Assembly: GCA_900317715.1 (NCBI GenBank)
Contig: ONHS01000003.1
Location: forward strand, 7,954 to 71,953
DNA: 64,000 nucleotides
Direction of reading: 5' to 3'
From: an uncultured Bacteroidales bacterium
GTDB taxonomy: Bacteria > Bacteroidota > Bacteroidia > Bacteroidales > WCHB1-69
Shown here: one piece after another, positions 12,147 through 18,968 of the stretch
Position numbering within the stretch: the first letter of the stretch is position 1
Layout: every line of letters begins with the position of its first letter
Made by a program: the position numbers and the translations under genes
The notes under the pieces: model-generated
What the model saw: the letters and a program-made list of their open reading frames with translations, nothing else
What the model was told of the DNA's origin: nothing
The model's database searches: none

Positions 12147-12179
12147 AAGGTAGGGGCGAATAATCATTCGCCCTACCTT
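12147..12179. repeat. REP-like hairpin, GTAGGGGCGAA...TTCGCCC(C)TAC family
   Basis: AAGGTAGGGGCGAA-taatca-TTCGCCCTACCTT, a 13-bp stem with one bulge. Confidence 0.8.
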
Positions 12180-12233: not shown

Positions 12234-12241
12234 TATTTTTG
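12234..12241 (+). promoter_or_regulatory. -7 promoter box TATTTTTG for tRNA-Ser
   Basis: Exact TAnnTTTG followed by GCCGCC, 25 nt upstream of the tRNA 5' end. It is an inverted near-copy of the lpxD promoter segment. Confidence 0.55.
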
Positions 12242-12266
12242 CCGCCGATTTCAGAAATGAAACCAC

Positions 12267-12353
12267 GGAGAGGTGGGTGAGTGGCTGAAACCACCAGTTT
12301 GCTAAACTGACGAAGGGGTAACTCTTCCGCGAGTTCGAATCTCGCTCTCTCCG
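12267..12353 (+). tRNA. tRNA-Ser (anticodon GCU), class II with a long variable arm; no encoded CCA
   Basis: Folded by hand. Acceptor stem GGAGAGG/TCTCTCC (one G-U pair). Anticodon loop TTGCTAA. Variable arm GAAGGGGTAACTCTTC. T-arm GCGAG-TTCGAAT-CTCGC. Discriminator G. Confidence 0.9.
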
Positions 12354-12360
12354 CGACCTT

Positions 12361-12388
12361 GTAGGGGCGAAAGATTTTTCGCCCCTAC
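12361..12388 (+). terminator. Perfect 12-bp hairpin (GTAGGGGCGAAA-gatt-TTTCGCCCCTAC) 8 nt after tRNA-Ser; probable terminator or processing hairpin, REP family
   Basis: Read directly. Same family as the hairpin at 12147-12179. Only a weak T tract follows. Confidence 0.55.
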
Positions 12389-12413
12389 GTTCGTTTAAAA
12401 CCCACCTCACCCT

Positions 12414-12448
12414 ATTCATCATTCATCATTCTACATTCTTCATTCCGC
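12414..12448. repeat. Degenerate heptamer array (ATTCATC family)
   Basis: Five units: ATTCATC ATTCATC ATTCTAC ATTCTTC ATTCCGC. Confidence 0.85.
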
Positions 12449-12462
12449 ATTGACAAATTCCG

Positions 12463-12470
12463 TATCTTTG
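12463..12470 (+). promoter_or_regulatory. -7 promoter box TATCTTTG
   Basis: Exact TAnnTTTG 20 nt upstream of ATG 12490. Confidence 0.5.
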
Positions 12471-12489
12471 CCCCCAAATTATCACTATT

Positions 12490-13209
12490 ATGGATTCCGC
12501 AATGAATACGAACCCGTACTTGTCTCCCAAAATGAAGATGGCTGATGCTATCAATCAGTACCACAGCCTGTTAACCGTGCTCCCGCGACTCGGCATTCCC
12601 CTTGGTTTTGGCGAGAAAAGCATAGAACAGCTCTGCACCGAACAGCACGTTTCGCTGCCGCTCTTCACCCTTATCAGCCGCGTCTATATCCAAACCGACT
12701 ACTACCCCTCCATCGAGGAGCTGAGACAATGTCCCATGAACGACATCCTGCAGTATCTGCAACAATCTCATCAAGACTACTTGGAGAACAAATTTCCTCA
12801 TATCGAGCAGCATTTCAACGCGTTGCTTGAGCCGATGGATAAGAAATACAGCACGCTGATCGTCAATTTCTACAAGGAATTCAAAAAGGAGGTGGTGAAG
12901 CATTTCCAATATGAGGAGAAAGTTGTATTTCCTTATATGCGGCAGATATTATCTGAAAATGAGACAGATAACGGCGAACATCACCACAAATCCGCGTTCC
13001 AACAGCAGCACGATGACATTGAGGACACCCTCAACGACCTCACCAATCTGTTGCTGAAATACATTCCTGCGGAGGTTTCTTCCTCGGAACGTGTTGATAT
13101 GTTGTTAGATATGTACGCGCTTTCCAACGACATCGGGAAGCACGCCATGATGGAAGACCGCATTTTGCTGCCCTATATCCAGTACTTAGAATCTCAGAGC
13201 CATGATTAA
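12490..13209 (+). CDS. Hemerythrin-like (HHE cation-binding, RIC/ScdA-like) domain protein
   Basis: ATG start. Repeated His/Glu/Asp helix motifs (SHQDYLENKFPHIEQH, KHFQYEEKVVFPY, HDDIEDTLNDL, KHAMMEDRILLPY) typical of di-iron hemerythrin-like four-helix bundles. The family assignment is tentative. Confidence 0.6.
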   Translation: MDSAMNTNPYLSPKMKMADAINQYHSLLTVLPRLGIPLGFGEKSIEQLCTEQHVSLPLFTLISRVYIQTDYYPSIEELRQCPMNDILQYLQQSHQDYLENKFPHIEQHFNALLEPMDKKYSTLIVNFYKEFKKEVVKHFQYEEKVVFPYMRQILSENETDNGEHHHKSAFQQQHDDIEDTLNDLTNLLLKYIPAEVSSSERVDMLLDMYALSNDIGKHAMMEDRILLPYIQYLESQSHD

Positions 13210-13792
13210 GATCGCCATTGCTGAACCTTCACAGATGCTGCGCAACGGCCTCGCCGACCTCTTGCGCGACGTGCCCGACACGGAGGTGGTCTTCTCCACG
13301 GACAACCTGAACGCATTGTTTTCCAGAATGCCGGCGTTGCATGCGGACATTCTGATTATCAACCCGTTGCTCTTCGAGTACAGCCACCGCGCCACGCTCC
13401 GCGCCGAATTCGACAACCATCCCGAACTGCGCCTCATCGCTCTCGTCACCTCTTACCTCGAATCCCAGCATCTCCGCCAGTTCTCCGGCATCATCGAACT
13501 CAACGACGACCTCCAGCGCGTGAAATCGACCATCAACCAGGTGGTCAACACCCTCCAATCCGACGGCGACGAACCTGACACCGACCCCCTCTCCGACCGC
13601 GAAAAAGAGGTCCTCATCTGCCTCTCCAAAGGTCTGAAAAACAACGAAATAGCAGATACTCTCAACATCTCCGTCCACACCGTCATCACCCACCGCAAAA
13701 ACATCGTCCGCAAAACCGGCATCAAATCCGTCGCGGCGCTGACGGTATATGCGATATTGAACAATTTGATTGAAGAAAAAGACATCATTTAG
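13202..13792 (+). CDS. LuxR/FixJ-family DNA-binding regulator with a degenerate (pseudo-)receiver domain
   Basis: ATG overlaps the upstream stop by 8 nt (ATGATTAA). C-terminal LuxR HTH (LSDREKEVLICLSKGLKNNEIADTLNISVHTVITHRKNI). The N-terminal REC-like fold lacks the acidic pocket (IAIAEPS instead of DD; ILIINP instead of the phospho-Asp motif). Confidence 0.8.
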   Translation: MIKIAIAEPSQMLRNGLADLLRDVPDTEVVFSTDNLNALFSRMPALHADILIINPLLFEYSHRATLRAEFDNHPELRLIALVTSYLESQHLRQFSGIIELNDDLQRVKSTINQVVNTLQSDGDEPDTDPLSDREKEVLICLSKGLKNNEIADTLNISVHTVITHRKNIVRKTGIKSVAALTVYAILNNLIEEKDII

Positions 13793-13985
13793 TTAGCAGT
13801 TAGCAGTTAGTAGTTAGTAGTTAGCAGTTTATGCCGAAAGAGCCACTATATATTAAACTACTTCCTTGAGCAGCCCCGCTAGGGGCAAGAGCTAGGTAGC
13901 CAGGGGTGAGCGCAGCGAAACCCCTGGGACGGATGACGACGATGACACGATGATGCGATGAATGACGATGATGAATAACGAATAC
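13793..13985 (+). repeat. Structured intergenic repeat (MITE/REP-like), copy A: TTAGCAG/TTAGTAG heptamers, a ~105-nt core with two stem-loops, then a GATGA-rich tail
   Basis: Core 13828-13932 is near-identical to 15944-16046 and, in inverse orientation, similar to 39261-39368. Stem-loops GCCCC-gcta-GGGGC and CCAGGGG-n14-CCCCTGG. Confidence 0.85.
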
Positions 13986-13994
13986 CCAGACAAT

Positions 13995-15914
13995 ATGAAT
14001 AAAATAATCACCCTAATTATCACATTATGCCTCGCGTGGTCGATGGCCACCGCGCAGGCCCCCGACCCCTACGCCGGTTACGACCGCGTGACCCTCTATG
14101 ACAGCATGACCGTGCGCATGGAGGAGAACGGTCTCAGCCACTACCTCAACCATCAGCGTTACAGAGTGTTGAGTGATGTTGGCTGCCGCGACAACAACAC
14201 GATCATCGTCGATTACGACCCGCTGTCAGCCTACTGCGAAATCCGCGACGTGGTCATCTACCGCCACGATGGCACGGAGGAGCACCCCGATTTCATGGTG
14301 TGCGACTACCCTGCCCCCGCCCACATGATCTATTGGGGCGCACGGCAGAAGATGGTCGCCCTCGGTCGCCTCGAAATTGGCGACGAGGTGGAATTCCTCA
14401 CCTACAAGAAAGGGTTTACCTACGCGCTGCTGCAGGGCGAGGACCCCGACGCGAAGTACATTCCGCCCATGCGCGGCCACTTCTACGACATCGTCCCCTT
14501 TTGGAGCAGTCAGCCCGTGAAGGAGAAAGTGTATCAAGTCAGTGTGCTGACCAACAAGAATTTGCAGTACAAGATCTACAACGGGAATCTTGCCGTGAAA
14601 ACCACGAAGGATGGCGACCGCACCCTCTTCACCTTCTCAAGCACGGACTATTTCCCGTTGAAGACCCCGCGCTACACCGTGGCCAACAACGACATTGAGC
14701 CAAAGCTCATCGTGACCACCGCGCAAAATTGGGAGGCTAAGTCGATGTGGTTTTACGGCGTAAACGAAGATTTTGGCAGTTTCGAGGCCACGCCGGAAAT
14801 CCAGGCCAAGGTCAACGAGCTGCTGAAGCCGGCCAAGACCGAAAACGACAGTTTGGACATCCTCACGCACTGGGTGGCCGACAACGTGCGCTACTCCGGC
14901 ATCTCGATGGGCGAAGGCGAGGGATTCACGCTCCACAAGTGCGAGATGACCTTCCGCGACCGCTGTGGTGTCTGCAAGGACAAGGCTGGCATGCTCATCG
15001 GCATGTTGCGGGCGGCGGGCTTCAAGGCCTACGCTGCCATGACGATGGCCGGCGAGCGCATCGAGGACATCCCCGCCGACCAATTCAACCATTGCATCAC
15101 GGTGGTACAGCGTCGCAACGGCAACTACCAACTTTTGGATCCCACGTGGGTTCCGGGCGTGCGCGGCGAACTCTGGTCCAGCGCGGAACAGCAACAGAAC
15201 TACCTGATGGGACTGCCTAAAGGCTCGAAGTTGGGACTTACCCCCGTCTCCGACCCGAAGAACCACTACGTGCGCATGACCGCCCAGACCGAAGTCACCA
15301 AAAAGGGCTCGCTCAAGGGCACCGTCACCATCACCGCCGACCGGCAGAGCGACCGCACCGTGCGCGGTGTCTTCTACGGCTTCCGCACCGAATGGCGACG
15401 CAATGTGGAAGAGATGCTCTATGCGCAGTACCCCAACGCGAAACTCAAAAGCGTGAAATACACCAGCGAGGACGACTACCTCAAACAACCGGTAAGCATC
15501 ACCTACACGTTCGAAATCCCTGACTACGCGATTGTTACGGACAACGAGGTGATCGCCACGCCCTTCCTCGCCAACGGCTTCTACACCTTCGCCATGCGTC
15601 ACCTCTTCTACGACATCAGCTTGGAGAAGCGCGACTACCCCTTCACTGACCGTTGCTCCCGCTACGTCGCCATCAACGAAACGATGAAGGTGCCATCGGG
15701 TTACACCCGCGTGAGCACGCCCCAATCGCAGCAGTTCGTCACCCCAACCATCTCGTTCAAAGGCGGTTACCAAATCGGCTACAACATGGTCACCTTCACC
15801 GAAAACATCACCCTCGGCAAGCGCGTCTATGAGGCTTCCGAATGGCCCTCTTTCCGCAAAGCCGTGCAATGCCAACGAGGGTATATGGGGAATCCGGTGG
15901 TGTTCATCAAATAG
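13995..15914 (+). CDS. Exported DUF3857-like / transglutaminase-like cysteine-peptidase-fold protein
   Basis: The track start at 13962 lies in the GATGA repeat. ATG 13995 gives a signal peptide MNKIITLIITLCLAWSMATA|QAP. Transglutaminase core Cys (GVCKDKAGMLIGMLRAAG), then His (FNHCITV) and Asp (LLDPTW). GC-rich gene. Confidence 0.78.
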   Translation: MNKIITLIITLCLAWSMATAQAPDPYAGYDRVTLYDSMTVRMEENGLSHYLNHQRYRVLSDVGCRDNNTIIVDYDPLSAYCEIRDVVIYRHDGTEEHPDFMVCDYPAPAHMIYWGARQKMVALGRLEIGDEVEFLTYKKGFTYALLQGEDPDAKYIPPMRGHFYDIVPFWSSQPVKEKVYQVSVLTNKNLQYKIYNGNLAVKTTKDGDRTLFTFSSTDYFPLKTPRYTVANNDIEPKLIVTTAQNWEAKSMWFYGVNEDFGSFEATPEIQAKVNELLKPAKTENDSLDILTHWVADNVRYSGISMGEGEGFTLHKCEMTFRDRCGVCKDKAGMLIGMLRAAGFKAYAAMTMAGERIEDIPADQFNHCITVVQRRNGNYQLLDPTWVPGVRGELWSSAEQQQNYLMGLPKGSKLGLTPVSDPKNHYVRMTAQTEVTKKGSLKGTVTITADRQSDRTVRGVFYGFRTEWRRNVEEMLYAQYPNAKLKSVKYTSEDDYLKQPVSITYTFEIPDYAIVTDNEVIATPFLANGFYTFAMRHLFYDISLEKRDYPFTDRCSRYVAINETMKVPSGYTRVSTPQSQQFVTPTISFKGGYQIGYNMVTFTENITLGKRVYEASEWPSFRKAVQCQRGYMGNPVVFIK

Positions 15915-16090
15915 TTAGCAATTAGCAGTTAGTAGTTAGCAGTTCATGCTGAAAGCTCCCACATATATTCAACTACTTCCTTGAGCAGCCCCGCTAGGGG
16001 CAAGAGCTCGGTAGCCAGGGGTGAGCGCAGCGAAACCCCTGGAACGAATGGCGATGATGAAGCGATGAATGATGCGATGAATGACGATAA
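15915..16090 (+). repeat. Structured intergenic repeat, copy B
   Basis: Begins immediately after stop TAG 15912-15914. Same architecture and orientation as copy A. Confidence 0.85.
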
Positions 16091-16165
16091 AATAATTATG
16101 CATTATGAATTACAAATTATGAATTTAATTGTGCATTATGCATTATGAATTATGAATTTATAAAG
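16091..16165. repeat. Degenerate heptamer array (ATTATGA / ATTATGC family)
   Basis: Read directly. TGA at 7-nt spacing on the + strand. Overlaps the spurious TTG/ATG-extended start of the next gene. Confidence 0.85.
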
Positions 16166-16168
16166 AAC

Positions 16169-17845
16169 ATGAGTAAACGATACATTATTACAATTTTGGC
16201 GGTATGCATGATGGCAACCGCATTCGGCAAAGCCCCCGAAAAGGACGCCGTCTATAAGCTCATTTCCAAGAGCTACACGTTGAACACGGACGGTTCCACA
16301 GAGTTCCGCAAGCGCACGGAGCTGCAGATTTTCACGCGGATGACGTTCGACCATTTCGGGGAGACATTCATCACCTACAACCCTGATTTCCAGGAGCTCA
16401 TCATCAACGAGGCGTACACCATCCGCAAGGACGGCAGTAAGGTGGAGACCCCTGCCAACGCCTTCAACCCGATGCTACCGGACGGCTGCACAAAGTGTGA
16501 GCGGCTCAACGGCATCCGCACGATGGTGGTGACCCACACGGCTTTGGAATACGATGCCCTCATCGTCCTCGACTACACCATCCGCTCCAAGAACTTCTTC
16601 TTCCAAGAGCTGTTGGAAAAGGTGGATTTGCAGGAGGAGGTGCCGGTGGAGAAGTATGTTATCCGTGTGACAATACCAAATTACAAGACCTTGTCTTTAT
16701 CTTTAAATGGTGAACATTCCAAAGTATCTGGTGACGAGAAAGACAATATGATTACCGTCGAAAACACGTTCACTAATCTGCCGGAACGTCCTACTGACGA
16801 TTACATTCAATCAAGAGATTTCTCATCTCTAACATTTTTTACACTGGATAAAGAGGATGATCTAGTCAACAAGATTATGCAGCAAAATTCCATGCAGAAA
16901 TTTGACAACCCGCAAATTATAGACTTCTTCCGCAGCCGTTTTACCGAAGATATATCTGACATGGATAAGGTGCTGTATGTCAGAGATTATATCCATGACA
17001 ATATCCATACTAACCATTTGGATGCCAAAATGTTAAATTATATGTTCGCCTCGCCGCAGCAAGTGTGGGAAAGCAACTGTGCTTTGCCGATAGAAAAGAA
17101 CATTTTATTGGCTGGAGTGCTGCAAAGTTTGGGATATGATGCAGAGCTTGCGTTCAAGAACAACACACTGCCGACCGATTTAGAAACGGTTGTGCGGTTG
17201 CATTACGAATTCAATACTTGGATGTTTACGCACTACATCTCCGCAAATGAGGCAGAAGATTTGAGTTTGGAAGCCTATTTTGCACCTGCCTCGCTTACCC
17301 TACAAAGTGGTAAACTTGAAGAGGTATATGCGCAACCTATCGACATCAATGTGGCATCCGAAATCACCTTTGAAAACGGACAATTGAACGCCCCAAAGGT
17401 GGATGTCACGAAAAAACATGTCTTTTCACCGCTTATGTGCACTTTACAAATGCAGGATGCCAATGTTTCAAAAGTGTCTGTTTCCCCACTCAGCAACAAA
17501 TACTATGAACTGACCATCGATGACGGCAACTACGGCACGCAAATCCAATCTGTAAACATTCACAACGATCGCAATTACGACATCAACACTGGCCAATCCG
17601 ATGAAAAGTACAGCTACACCATCACGCTACCTTCCAACGTCCGTTGCCTGACGAAACCTGTGCACAAAGAAATCACCGTCGAAAACGCCAAATTGCTGAT
17701 TGATGTTCAGATTGATGGTCAGACGGTGAAGATCACACGGCAGTTAAGTCTGCCTCAGGAGGGCATTTCCGCCAAGAACGTGAAGAAGTTCAAGGCGATG
17801 ATGGGAGAGTGGGACGCGCCACTGAAGGTGGTTTTTTCCCTGTAA
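16169..17845 (+). CDS. Exported DUF3857-like protein, paralogue of 13995-15914 with a diverged transglutaminase-like core
   Basis: ATG 16169 gives the signal peptide MSKRYIITILAVCMMATAFG|K. The N-terminal domain resembles the upstream paralogue by eye (Y.L...S.......G......R...ILS/IFT pattern). A possible core Cys lies in WESNCALPIEKNILLAGVLQSLG. There is a sharp GC drop near 16665. Confidence 0.72.
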   Translation: MSKRYIITILAVCMMATAFGKAPEKDAVYKLISKSYTLNTDGSTEFRKRTELQIFTRMTFDHFGETFITYNPDFQELIINEAYTIRKDGSKVETPANAFNPMLPDGCTKCERLNGIRTMVVTHTALEYDALIVLDYTIRSKNFFFQELLEKVDLQEEVPVEKYVIRVTIPNYKTLSLSLNGEHSKVSGDEKDNMITVENTFTNLPERPTDDYIQSRDFSSLTFFTLDKEDDLVNKIMQQNSMQKFDNPQIIDFFRSRFTEDISDMDKVLYVRDYIHDNIHTNHLDAKMLNYMFASPQQVWESNCALPIEKNILLAGVLQSLGYDAELAFKNNTLPTDLETVVRLHYEFNTWMFTHYISANEAEDLSLEAYFAPASLTLQSGKLEEVYAQPIDINVASEITFENGQLNAPKVDVTKKHVFSPLMCTLQMQDANVSKVSVSPLSNKYYELTIDDGNYGTQIQSVNIHNDRNYDINTGQSDEKYSYTITLPSNVRCLTKPVHKEITVENAKLLIDVQIDGQTVKITRQLSLPQEGISAKNVKKFKAMMGEWDAPLKVVFSL

Positions 17846-17855
17846 AGATGTCCAG

Positions 17856-17920
17856 TCTTCCTCTGGTCTTCCTCTGGTGTAACTCTGGTGTAACTCTGGT
17901 GTTCTCTGGTGTAACTCTGA
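17856..17920. repeat. Tandem 11-mer array (TCTTCCTCTGG x2, TGTAACTCTGG x4 degenerate)
   Basis: Read directly. Starts 10 nt after the stop. Confidence 0.9.
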
Positions 17921-17933
17921 TCAAACCATTGTA

Positions 17934-17955
17934 GAGACGTTGCGCGCAACGTCTC
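17934..17955. repeat. Perfect 22-nt palindrome GAGACGTTGCGCGCAACGTCTC (TGTAGAGACG...CGTCTC hairpin family)
   Basis: Read directly. Related hairpins occur at 18024-18047 and 20501-20530. Confidence 0.85.
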
Positions 17956-18016
17956 CACAACGGCACGAAAAGAATGTTTGGATATATTGTTTTTTATTAC
18001 CGATAGATTACATGAT

Positions 18017-18047
18017 AAAAAAAAGAGACGCGATGAATCGCGTCTCT
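18017..18047 (-). terminator. Rho-independent terminator of the DUF975 gene
   Basis: Minus strand: AGAGACGCG-attcat-CGCGTCTCT followed by T8. Lies 19 nt after the stop. Confidence 0.8.
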
Positions 18048-18065
18048 ATTACGGGGACTACCCCA

Positions 18066-18782
18066 TTATTCGGTAACATCCGCAGATGTTTCTTCTTCCT
18101 CAATAGGTGTATTTTCTTCAGCAGGTTCGCTTTCTTCCTCTTCACCCTCAAACTCCGCACGAACCTTTTCGTAGAATTTGAACACGGTCATCTCCATGTA
18201 AGGTTCTAGCCAAAGAAATCCGATGAAGAGTGTGAAAATACAAAGAATGGCCCATCCTAAGAAACTGAGGTAAAGCACAAACAGATCCCATTTGTGACCT
18301 TTCATCATCATGCGGCTCTTTTGGAGCACTTCCGTGGCGGAAAGTTCCGGATTGTCATAGAGCACGAAGGGAACGATGGCGTATGCAAAACAAAGGATGA
18401 TGCCAGGAATAACCAATAGAATAAATCCAGCTATAACGGCCAAAGCCATCAGCACAAATGTTCCTAACACATGCCCGAAACGTTTGTATCCAAGGAACAA
18501 GTCTCCGATGTCGGCGGGCAAATCCTGGCGTGAGGAATTCAAATAGGCAACATAGTAACCAAATTGCAGCGGCAAGGCCAAAATCGTCAACAAAACGCCT
18601 GACCCCGTCATTATCACGGCCAGCGTAGTGAATGAACTACCCGTGAAAATTTCGCCAAACTGTGTGGTACTGGAGGCTATACCGGCCAACAGAATGTACA
18701 AAAACGTGAGTCCCACAAATGAACCCCATTTACCTCTTAATGTGGCTAAAGCTTCTTCTTTTAAATCGTTGATTTTTCCCAT
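18066..18782 (-). CDS. DUF975-family integral membrane protein with an acidic C-terminal tail
   Basis: ATG start. N-terminus ALATLRGKWGSFVGLTFLYILLAG and 4-5 TM segments, typical of DUF975. C-terminal tail is E-rich. Confidence 0.7.
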   Translation of the reverse strand: MGKINDLKEEALATLRGKWGSFVGLTFLYILLAGIASSTTQFGEIFTGSSFTTLAVIMTGSGVLLTILALPLQFGYYVAYLNSSRQDLPADIGDLFLGYKRFGHVLGTFVLMALAVIAGFILLVIPGIILCFAYAIVPFVLYDNPELSATEVLQKSRMMMKGHKWDLFVLYLSFLGWAILCIFTLFIGFLWLEPYMEMTVFKFYEKVRAEFEGEEEESEPAEENTPIEEEETSADVTE

Positions 18783-18798
18783 AATATTTGATATTTTT

Positions 18799-18811
18799 AT
18801 TGATAATCAAT
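18799..18811. promoter_or_regulatory. 13-bp perfect palindrome ATTGAT-A-ATCAAT in the DUF975 leader
   Basis: Lies 16 nt from ATG 18782. A 12/13 copy lies at 19015-19027, 16 nt from ATG 19044. Confidence 0.4.
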
Positions 18812-18818
18812 TTTGACG

Positions 18819-18826
18819 CAAAAATA
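18819..18826 (-). promoter_or_regulatory. -7 promoter box TATTTTTG (minus strand) for the DUF975 gene
   Basis: Exact TAnnTTTG 37 nt upstream of ATG 18782. Confidence 0.5.
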
Positions 18827-18968
18827 CAAAATCTTCCAAACACATTTAAGGATGCAAAAATAGCAAAAGGTTGCAGAAAAACGAAAAAAAAATTTTCACT
18901 TTTCGTTATCAACACTTTTTGTTCAAAAAAAAATCCACTTTTTTTTGCCCGCTTTTTTAGAAAAAAAA

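Follow-up and report, generated by a model that had tools for sequence, protein, structure and literature searches.

CdhR (PG1237) is a LuxR regulator of hmuYR and of community development in Porphyromonas gingivalis. Its gene adjoins that of PG1236, a hemerythrin-like protein of 27.5 kDa, and the two genes are co-induced by nitric oxide (NO) and carried on one transcript (PMC11018363). A cdhR mutant is sensitive to NO and a PG1236 mutant is not; in the latter, hcp and stress genes are derepressed (PMC11018363). Low iron raises PG1236-38 expression approximately 7-fold, and that of BT0519-20 in Bacteroides thetaiotaomicron 16-20-fold; the operon has been called identical in these two species, and fused in Prevotella intermedia (PMC10434189). 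Here we analyse a stretch of 64,000 nucleotides (nt), hereafter the window, from an uncultured Bacteroidales bacterium (assembly GCA_900317715.1, contig ONHS01000003.1, positions 7,954 to 71,953), in which the gene for a hemerythrin-like protein of 239 amino acids (aa), hem, runs into the gene for a 196-aa LuxR-type regulator, luxR.

Both window proteins are homologous to the P. gingivalis pair. In BLASTP, the 239-aa protein showed 34% identity to PG1236 over 226 aa (E 4e-42) and the 196-aa protein 30% identity to CdhR over 191 aa (E 5e-31). The two P. gingivalis genes have the order and strand arrangement of the window pair, hem first, and share an ATGA overlap; PG1236 falls within the family clade on a tree of hemerythrin domains (see below). 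At the receiver sites discussed below, CdhR likewise reads E-P and M-N-P. The P. gingivalis locus was recovered via published W83 primers, on metagenome contigs (loci L121-L123) with 6-8 exact matches in the expected order; the PG1236 forward primer had no match in the genome contigs, and the PG1237 primer matched the metagenome contigs. By its sequence, the window pair belongs to the PG1236-CdhR module of Bacteroidota, as a divergent but ordinary relative. The pair is not new, having already been described as PG1236-CdhR and BT0519-BT0520.

A RIC-fold protein and an Asp-less receiver

The 239-aa protein matched the Pfam Hemerythrin model above its cut-off (E 1.8e-12). Against the NCBIfam RIC equivalog TIGR03652 it scored 52.4 bits (cut-off 204.7), and against the YtfE, ScdA and DnrN models 19-28 bits (cut-offs 254-300). 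A family profile compared with the PDB recovered ScdA over its full length (residues 3-221, E 7.9e-10) and YtfE (E 4e-8). The AlphaFold2 (AF2) model (pLDDT 88.7, pTM 0.85) consists of a small N-terminal helical domain, resembling ScdA_N, and a long four-helix bundle, and its only significant fold matches were YtfE and ScdA. On proper alignment the ligand set expected of this protein in the first-pass annotation is in place: H94, H138, E142, H174, H218 and E222 are invariant across 36 diverse members, and in profile alignments these six line up with the corresponding His and Glu residues of YtfE and ScdA. We take those YtfE residues to be its iron ligands, hence the six positions are presumably the ligands of a di-iron centre.

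The most conserved stretch of the family, LPRLGIPLGFGEKS, stands where RIC proteins have GIDFCCGG. The N-domain motif I36-x-L38-G39-F40-G41 is invariant in the family, and the Cys pair of RIC proteins is absent, with LGFGEKS in the position of DFCCGGQ of ScdA (GFG for CCG). A single Cys, C49, is invariant among split (unfused) forms. No further hemerythrin-domain genes were found in the window's genome. We conclude that the 239-aa protein is a cytoplasmic RIC-fold protein with a complete predicted set of di-iron ligands.

The 196-aa protein carries a GerE helix-turn-helix (HTH) domain at residues 128-184 (Pfam), and it gave no match to Pfam Response_reg at E<=1. In phmmer it aligned end to end with PDB entry 5hev (annotated as VraR or Enterococcus faecium LiaR), and in that alignment the acidic DD pair is replaced by E8-P9 and the phospho-acceptor Asp by N54. 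The AF2 model of the regulator (41 family members, pLDDT 87.8) comprises a (beta-alpha)5 domain (residues 1-117), a disordered linker (120-126) and then the HTH. Foldseek returned LiaR, VraR, RcsB and NarL (E 1e-10 to 1e-8), together with ChrA and DesR, as its full-length top matches. There is no Lys after beta5, N101 being found at that position, and no Trp in the whole protein.

Across the alignment of 41 regulators, E8 is invariant and S10, P48-D49 and N54-P55 are at least 90% conserved. Since E8, S10 and N54-P55 are kept in this way, the loss of the phosphorylation pocket is old and conserved in the family, and new conserved motifs, E-P-S and N-P, replace the lost residues. The first-pass annotation had read a receiver-like domain with a substituted pocket, no functional Asp and no kinase nearby from the letters, and all of this was borne out, with Asn replacing the acceptor Asp in at least 90% of the 41 family members and HATPase_c domains absent from the whole contig (all 14 matches in the genome lie on other contigs). 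We conclude that the regulator is a LuxR protein of the NarL/FixJ fold whose receiver, judged by alignment and model, has lost its phosphorylation pocket.

Linkage and fusion across the Bacteroidota

The co-occurrence and gene order by which it had been proposed to judge the pair were found at every level sampled. Among relatives, including ten other families of the order, the LuxR gene directly followed hem in all 29 loci. Species-representative genomes, when scanned, yielded at least 589 species with a relative, from which the best 80 loci were inspected. The split pair was present in 58 of these (mostly with an ATGA overlap), an in-frame hem-HTH fusion of 270-290 aa in 21, and one was cut by a contig end; a LuxR HTH was adjacent or fused in all 79 evaluable loci. 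Organisms with the pair or the fusion include Tannerella (among them T. forsythia ATCC 43037), Muribaculaceae, Odoribacter, Rikenella and Prevotellaceae. When an even sample of 300 Bacteroidota genomes was searched for hem homologues, each family-level match (21/21) was linked or fused to a LuxR HTH, some of them outside the order and the class, and none of the weaker RIC-like matches that were checked in the same sample (L166-L173) had one. Locus L148 (G167:C1:281208-284885) is the sole locus with the LuxR gene before hem, in a genome that has two matches.

Absence follows the same pattern. Two congeners that lack hem (98% and 90% complete) also lack the pseudo-receiver, and in a genome that carries hem twice, each copy is adjacent to a pseudo-receiver of its own. 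The junction itself is also maintained. The 8-nt overlap between the two window genes, reported in the first-pass annotation, is exactly as claimed (Table 1); close relatives likewise overlap by 8 nt, and most other lineages, like P. gingivalis, have ATGA (-4). As the genes overlap or lie at most 3 nt apart in nearly all homologous loci, this stop/start arrangement is not due to chance.

In a tree of 127 hemerythrin domains, the family was separated from ScdA/RIC-like proteins by a branch with 99% support in the Shimodaira-Hasegawa-like approximate likelihood ratio test (SH-aLRT). The fused architecture needs four changes on this tree, of which well-supported branches force three or more, and hem-HTH fusions that dropped the pseudo-receiver thus arose at least three times independently.

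No universal neighbour gene of the pair was found, the best neighbour cluster occurring in 19 of the 80 loci. The neighbours vary among other lineages and include MlaE/ABC genes or, after the fused form, a 4Fe-4S membrane protein. In one Bacteroidales clade (L068-L118 type, for example L111:6858-8216) the fused gene is directly followed by a gene for a 453-aa multi-4Fe-4S protein and then by genes for a YitT-family membrane protein and a 4Fe-4S domain-containing aldo/keto reductase (15-19 loci).

The four-gene string, its repeats and candidate operators

In the window, the pair is followed on the same strand by two further genes, TG1 and TG2 (Table 1). These had been described as paralogous exported transglutaminase-like genes, which holds in part. 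Pfam detected DUF3857 in both (99.2 bits in TG1, 92.4 bits in TG2) and both N-termini are signal-peptide-like, but the two are distant paralogues, matching in BLASTP only at the N-terminus (E 0.007), where the DUF3857 domain is the common part. TG1 has a Transglut_core domain (31.5 bits) with a candidate nucleophile, C338, in GVCKDK; TG2 has DUF3858 (40.7 bits), no Pfam match to Transglut_core, and Leu at the position aligned with C338. As homologues align from residue 7-29 and the signal peptides begin later, the longest open reading frames (ORFs) of both genes probably start too early. The true start of TG1 is likely at 13995 (M12, MNKIITL...) rather than 13962, and that of TG2 is possibly at 16169 (M9, MSKRYII...) rather than 16145. 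GC content is 0.40 within TG2 at 16600-17200 and 0.58-0.63 in TG1, and TG2 is less conserved among congeners (37-75% identity) than TG1 (64-95%).

Table 1. Features of the hem-luxR locus, in window coordinates
Feature	Position	Strand	Basis or remark
hem, hemerythrin-like gene, 239 aa	12490-13209	+	PG1236-type hemerythrin/RIC-fold; ORF list
Stop/start overlap of hem and luxR, 8 nt, ATGATTAA	13202-13209	+	Sequence; putative translational coupling
luxR, CdhR-type LuxR regulator gene, 196 aa	13202-13792	+	ORF list, Pfam GerE
Bacteroidetes-type -7 promoter box, TATCTTTG	12463-12470	+	20 nt upstream of first ATG
Dispersed repeat, copy 1, 156 nt, between luxR and TG1	13798-13953	+	Repeat comparison
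TG1, exported (predicted) DUF3857 + Transglut_core protein	13962-15914	+	Pfam
Dispersed repeat, copy 2, 89% identical to copy 1	15913-16068	+	
TG2, exported (predicted) DUF3857 + DUF3858 protein	16145-17845	+	Pfam
Palindromic hairpin, 19+19 nt, downstream of TG2	17926-17963		Inverted-repeat pair

The -7 box is the sole plus-strand TAnnTTTG box in 12241-18968, and both the box and its spacing are conserved in congeners. No terminator-like sites were found between the four genes on the plus strand, and the hairpin downstream of TG2 is the probable end of the plus-strand unit. Comparison of the 8 kb downstream of the pair in 20 congeners showed that the order hem-luxR-TG1-TG2 is kept in 13, and in two of the genomes (G004 and G023) there is no intergenic repeat and the four genes abut or overlap. 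The single box, the lack of terminators, the colinearity and this abutment together support an operon of four genes that has acquired the repeat by insertion in some of the species, hence the promoter probably drives one transcript of hem, luxR, TG1 and TG2. In another congener, the LuxR gene and the TG1 orthologue share a strand and are approximately 7.6 kb apart (G003:C7:65493-76365), which suggests an insertion into the four-gene string.

Upstream of the pair, a tRNA-Ser(GCT) gene (12267-12354) lies between lpxD and hem, flanked by two near-identical GC hairpins (12147-12173 and 12365-12391). Congeners have a different sequence in place of this tRNA and hairpin block.

The first-pass annotation placed a structured repeat before each TG gene. 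A 156-nt repeat is indeed present at both sites, with a TTAGCAG heptamer head, two short GC hairpins and a GATGA-rich tail, but it is dispersed throughout the genome and folds no better than shuffled sequences (z -1.2). At least 44 full or partial copies were detected, and many of the genomic matches cover the first 32 nt only, that is, the heptamer array. Rfam returned no family for it. At one and the same intergenic site, some congeners have the repeat and others do not, a pattern that looks like insertion. A role as shared operator or leader was rejected on these grounds (number of genomic places, no Rfam family, folding, absence in some congeners).

Two other candidate operators were considered and set aside for the window. 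Just upstream of the promoter lies a tandem array of TTCATCA-like heptamers (12413-12450); TTCATCA dimers occur in 136 places in the genome, against 0 for the reversed control, and the array was rejected as an operator given this genome-wide distribution. In congeners, other heptamers (GCCTAAT, GCCTTTT, CCATAAA) occupy this position ahead of the same -7 box. In Tannerella and Muribaculaceae, a 14-bp palindrome of the CCCTATTAATAGGG type (CCC, eight mostly A/T positions, GGG) is found 70-145 nt upstream of the pair, often as two copies approximately 32 bp apart (L040-L047, L085, L094, L071, L110 and L066), and may serve CdhR-type regulators of these two groups as an autoregulatory operator. The window has no such site, even when one mismatch is allowed, and the whole genome has one, below the control count. 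The palindrome yields no regulon prediction in this genome and was rejected as an operator here; no operator was identified for the window pair.

Proposed signal input and comparison with known systems

We consider it probable, on balance, that the locus is a pair of the PG1236-CdhR type in which the di-iron protein provides the input to the pseudo-receiver regulator, expressed from a four-gene transcript. The di-iron protein would be the input device, and the state of its metal centre (loaded, iron-depleted, or modified by NO or O2) the signal. This state would be passed to the pseudo-receiver by protein-protein contact, and the contact would in turn alter how the HTH dimerises or binds DNA. 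Where the two proteins are separate, docking probably takes place on the conserved pseudo-receiver; where they are fused, the hemerythrin domain would stand in for it and act within a single chain. TG1 and TG2 would be produced under the same conditions as the regulator, which, judging from the homologues, would be a shortage of iron or nitrosative stress. The homologous operons are induced by low iron as well as by NO, which makes the condition of the di-iron centre the likely signal, although sensing by this protein is something we infer. The kinase-free sensor-regulator pair put forward in the first-pass annotation is partly supported: it fits the linkage, co-absence, coupling, fusions, ligands and Asn at the acceptor position, as well as the published induction of the homologues, but the pair had already been described, and sensing and partner binding are putative.

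Several observations weigh against this reading. As the P. gingivalis PG1236 mutant is not sensitive to NO and the cdhR mutant is, the di-iron protein is not simply a required activator, and it may instead be an inhibitor, a modulator or dispensable. The first ligand, H94, is one residue out of register with YtfE and ScdA in profile alignments. In five congeners without the adjacent arrangement the TG1 orthologue (62-88% identical) lies 7.7 kb to 86 kb away or on another contig, and in the 80 loci from other lineages neither DUF3857 gene was found in the 6 kb around the pair. The link of TG1 and TG2 to the pair is best described as a lineage-specific co-transcription, predicted from sequence, and not as a property of the family. 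The proposal that the pair controls secreted proteins is accordingly supported by the colinear congeners but weakened by the unlinked ones and by the other lineages.

A more far-reaching version, which we regard as doubtful though possible, would have a RIC-derived di-iron protein replace the histidine kinase across the Bacteroidota and report iron or NO status by contact with the degenerate receiver, with E-P-S/N-P as a docking surface, repeated fusion, and, in this lineage, coupled export of TG1 and TG2, possibly as proteases that free haem or iron.

It is somewhat less likely still that hem encodes an effector (a RIC-like repair protein, iron donor, or scavenger of NO or O2) that is merely co-expressed with a regulator set by its own abundance or by a small ligand; the ECF sigma factor SigH/SigCH, cited for control of cdhR (PMC10101095), is an example of how abundance might be set. 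The RIC fold and ligand set of the 239-aa protein would suit such a role, as would the induction of its homologues by NO and low iron (PMC11018363, PMC10434189), and the derepressed hcp and stress genes in the PG1236 mutant could mean lost protection rather than lost signalling (PMC11018363). However, recurrent in-frame hem-HTH fusions that replace the receiver are hard to explain for a bystander. The RIC Cys pair is moreover absent, the equivalog score is far below its cut-off (52 against 204.7 bits), and the family forms a clade separate from ScdA/RIC-like proteins with strict linkage to an HTH.

The c-di-GMP-binding motif of Vibrio cholerae VpsT is W[F/L/M][T/S]R, and the window regulator, having no Trp, is without it. 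It is very improbable that the regulator is an effector of the VpsT kind with hem unrelated to its control, as this would also leave the strict linkage and the hemerythrin fusions unexplained, even though VpsT is among the fold matches and CdhR has been the subject of speculation as a c-di-GMP effector (PMC10101095). Least probable of all is that the protein works as an ordinary response regulator and receives phosphate from an orphan histidine kinase encoded elsewhere, a reading for which the full-length NarL/FixJ fold and the HATPase_c matches on other contigs could be cited, but which faces Asn at the acceptor position in the window and the great majority of the 41 members, the Glu-Pro pair and the missing beta5 Lys.

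In an oral pathogen, CdhR has been studied for its control of haem uptake, community development and NO resistance, and the family includes gut Bacteroides, where iron limitation strongly induces the pair. Strict linkage and recurrent fusions, together with an Asp-less receiver beside an intact di-iron partner, yield a testable hypothesis for the signal input of CdhR and of the whole family. What our analysis adds to the described pair is HTH linkage at every evaluable family-level locus, co-absence, repeated fusions, and ligand invariance without the RIC Cys pair. The window copy is an ordinary member, in which only the operon with two exported (predicted) DUF3857 proteins is specific to the lineage.

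Compared with the RIC proteins of Fe-S cluster repair (Escherichia coli YtfE, Staphylococcus aureus ScdA), the 239-aa protein has the same two-domain fold and an H/H/E/H/H/E pattern that aligns, but it differs in lacking the N-domain Cys pair, in scoring far below the RIC equivalog cut-off and in belonging to a separately supported clade. Its family is furthermore always linked or fused to a LuxR HTH, whereas the RIC-like proteins checked in the same phylum are not. The regulator shares the (beta-alpha)5 receiver fold and GerE HTH of canonical NarL/FixJ regulators, but has no acceptor Asp, acidic pair, beta5 Lys or nearby kinase. In this respect it resembles atypical members of that family that are Asp-less or phosphorylation-independent, such as VpsT, in which a receiver fold used without phosphorylation is likewise joined to a GerE HTH; here the c-di-GMP motif is missing and the proposed input is a separate di-iron protein. 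The fused regulators, including the PIN17_RS10465 type of P. intermedia (PMC10434189), protein P0109 and loci L068-L118, combine the same hemerythrin domain with a GerE HTH in one chain of 270-367 aa, with the pseudo-receiver absent or reduced to its last helix, whereas the window has the split form. The closest described systems remain PG1236-CdhR and BT0519-BT0520, which the window pair matches in full-length homology of both proteins, gene order, strand and stop/start overlap; it differs in its divergent sequences and in being followed by two DUF3857 genes, where the P. gingivalis pair is followed by an RluA-type gene (PMC10434189).

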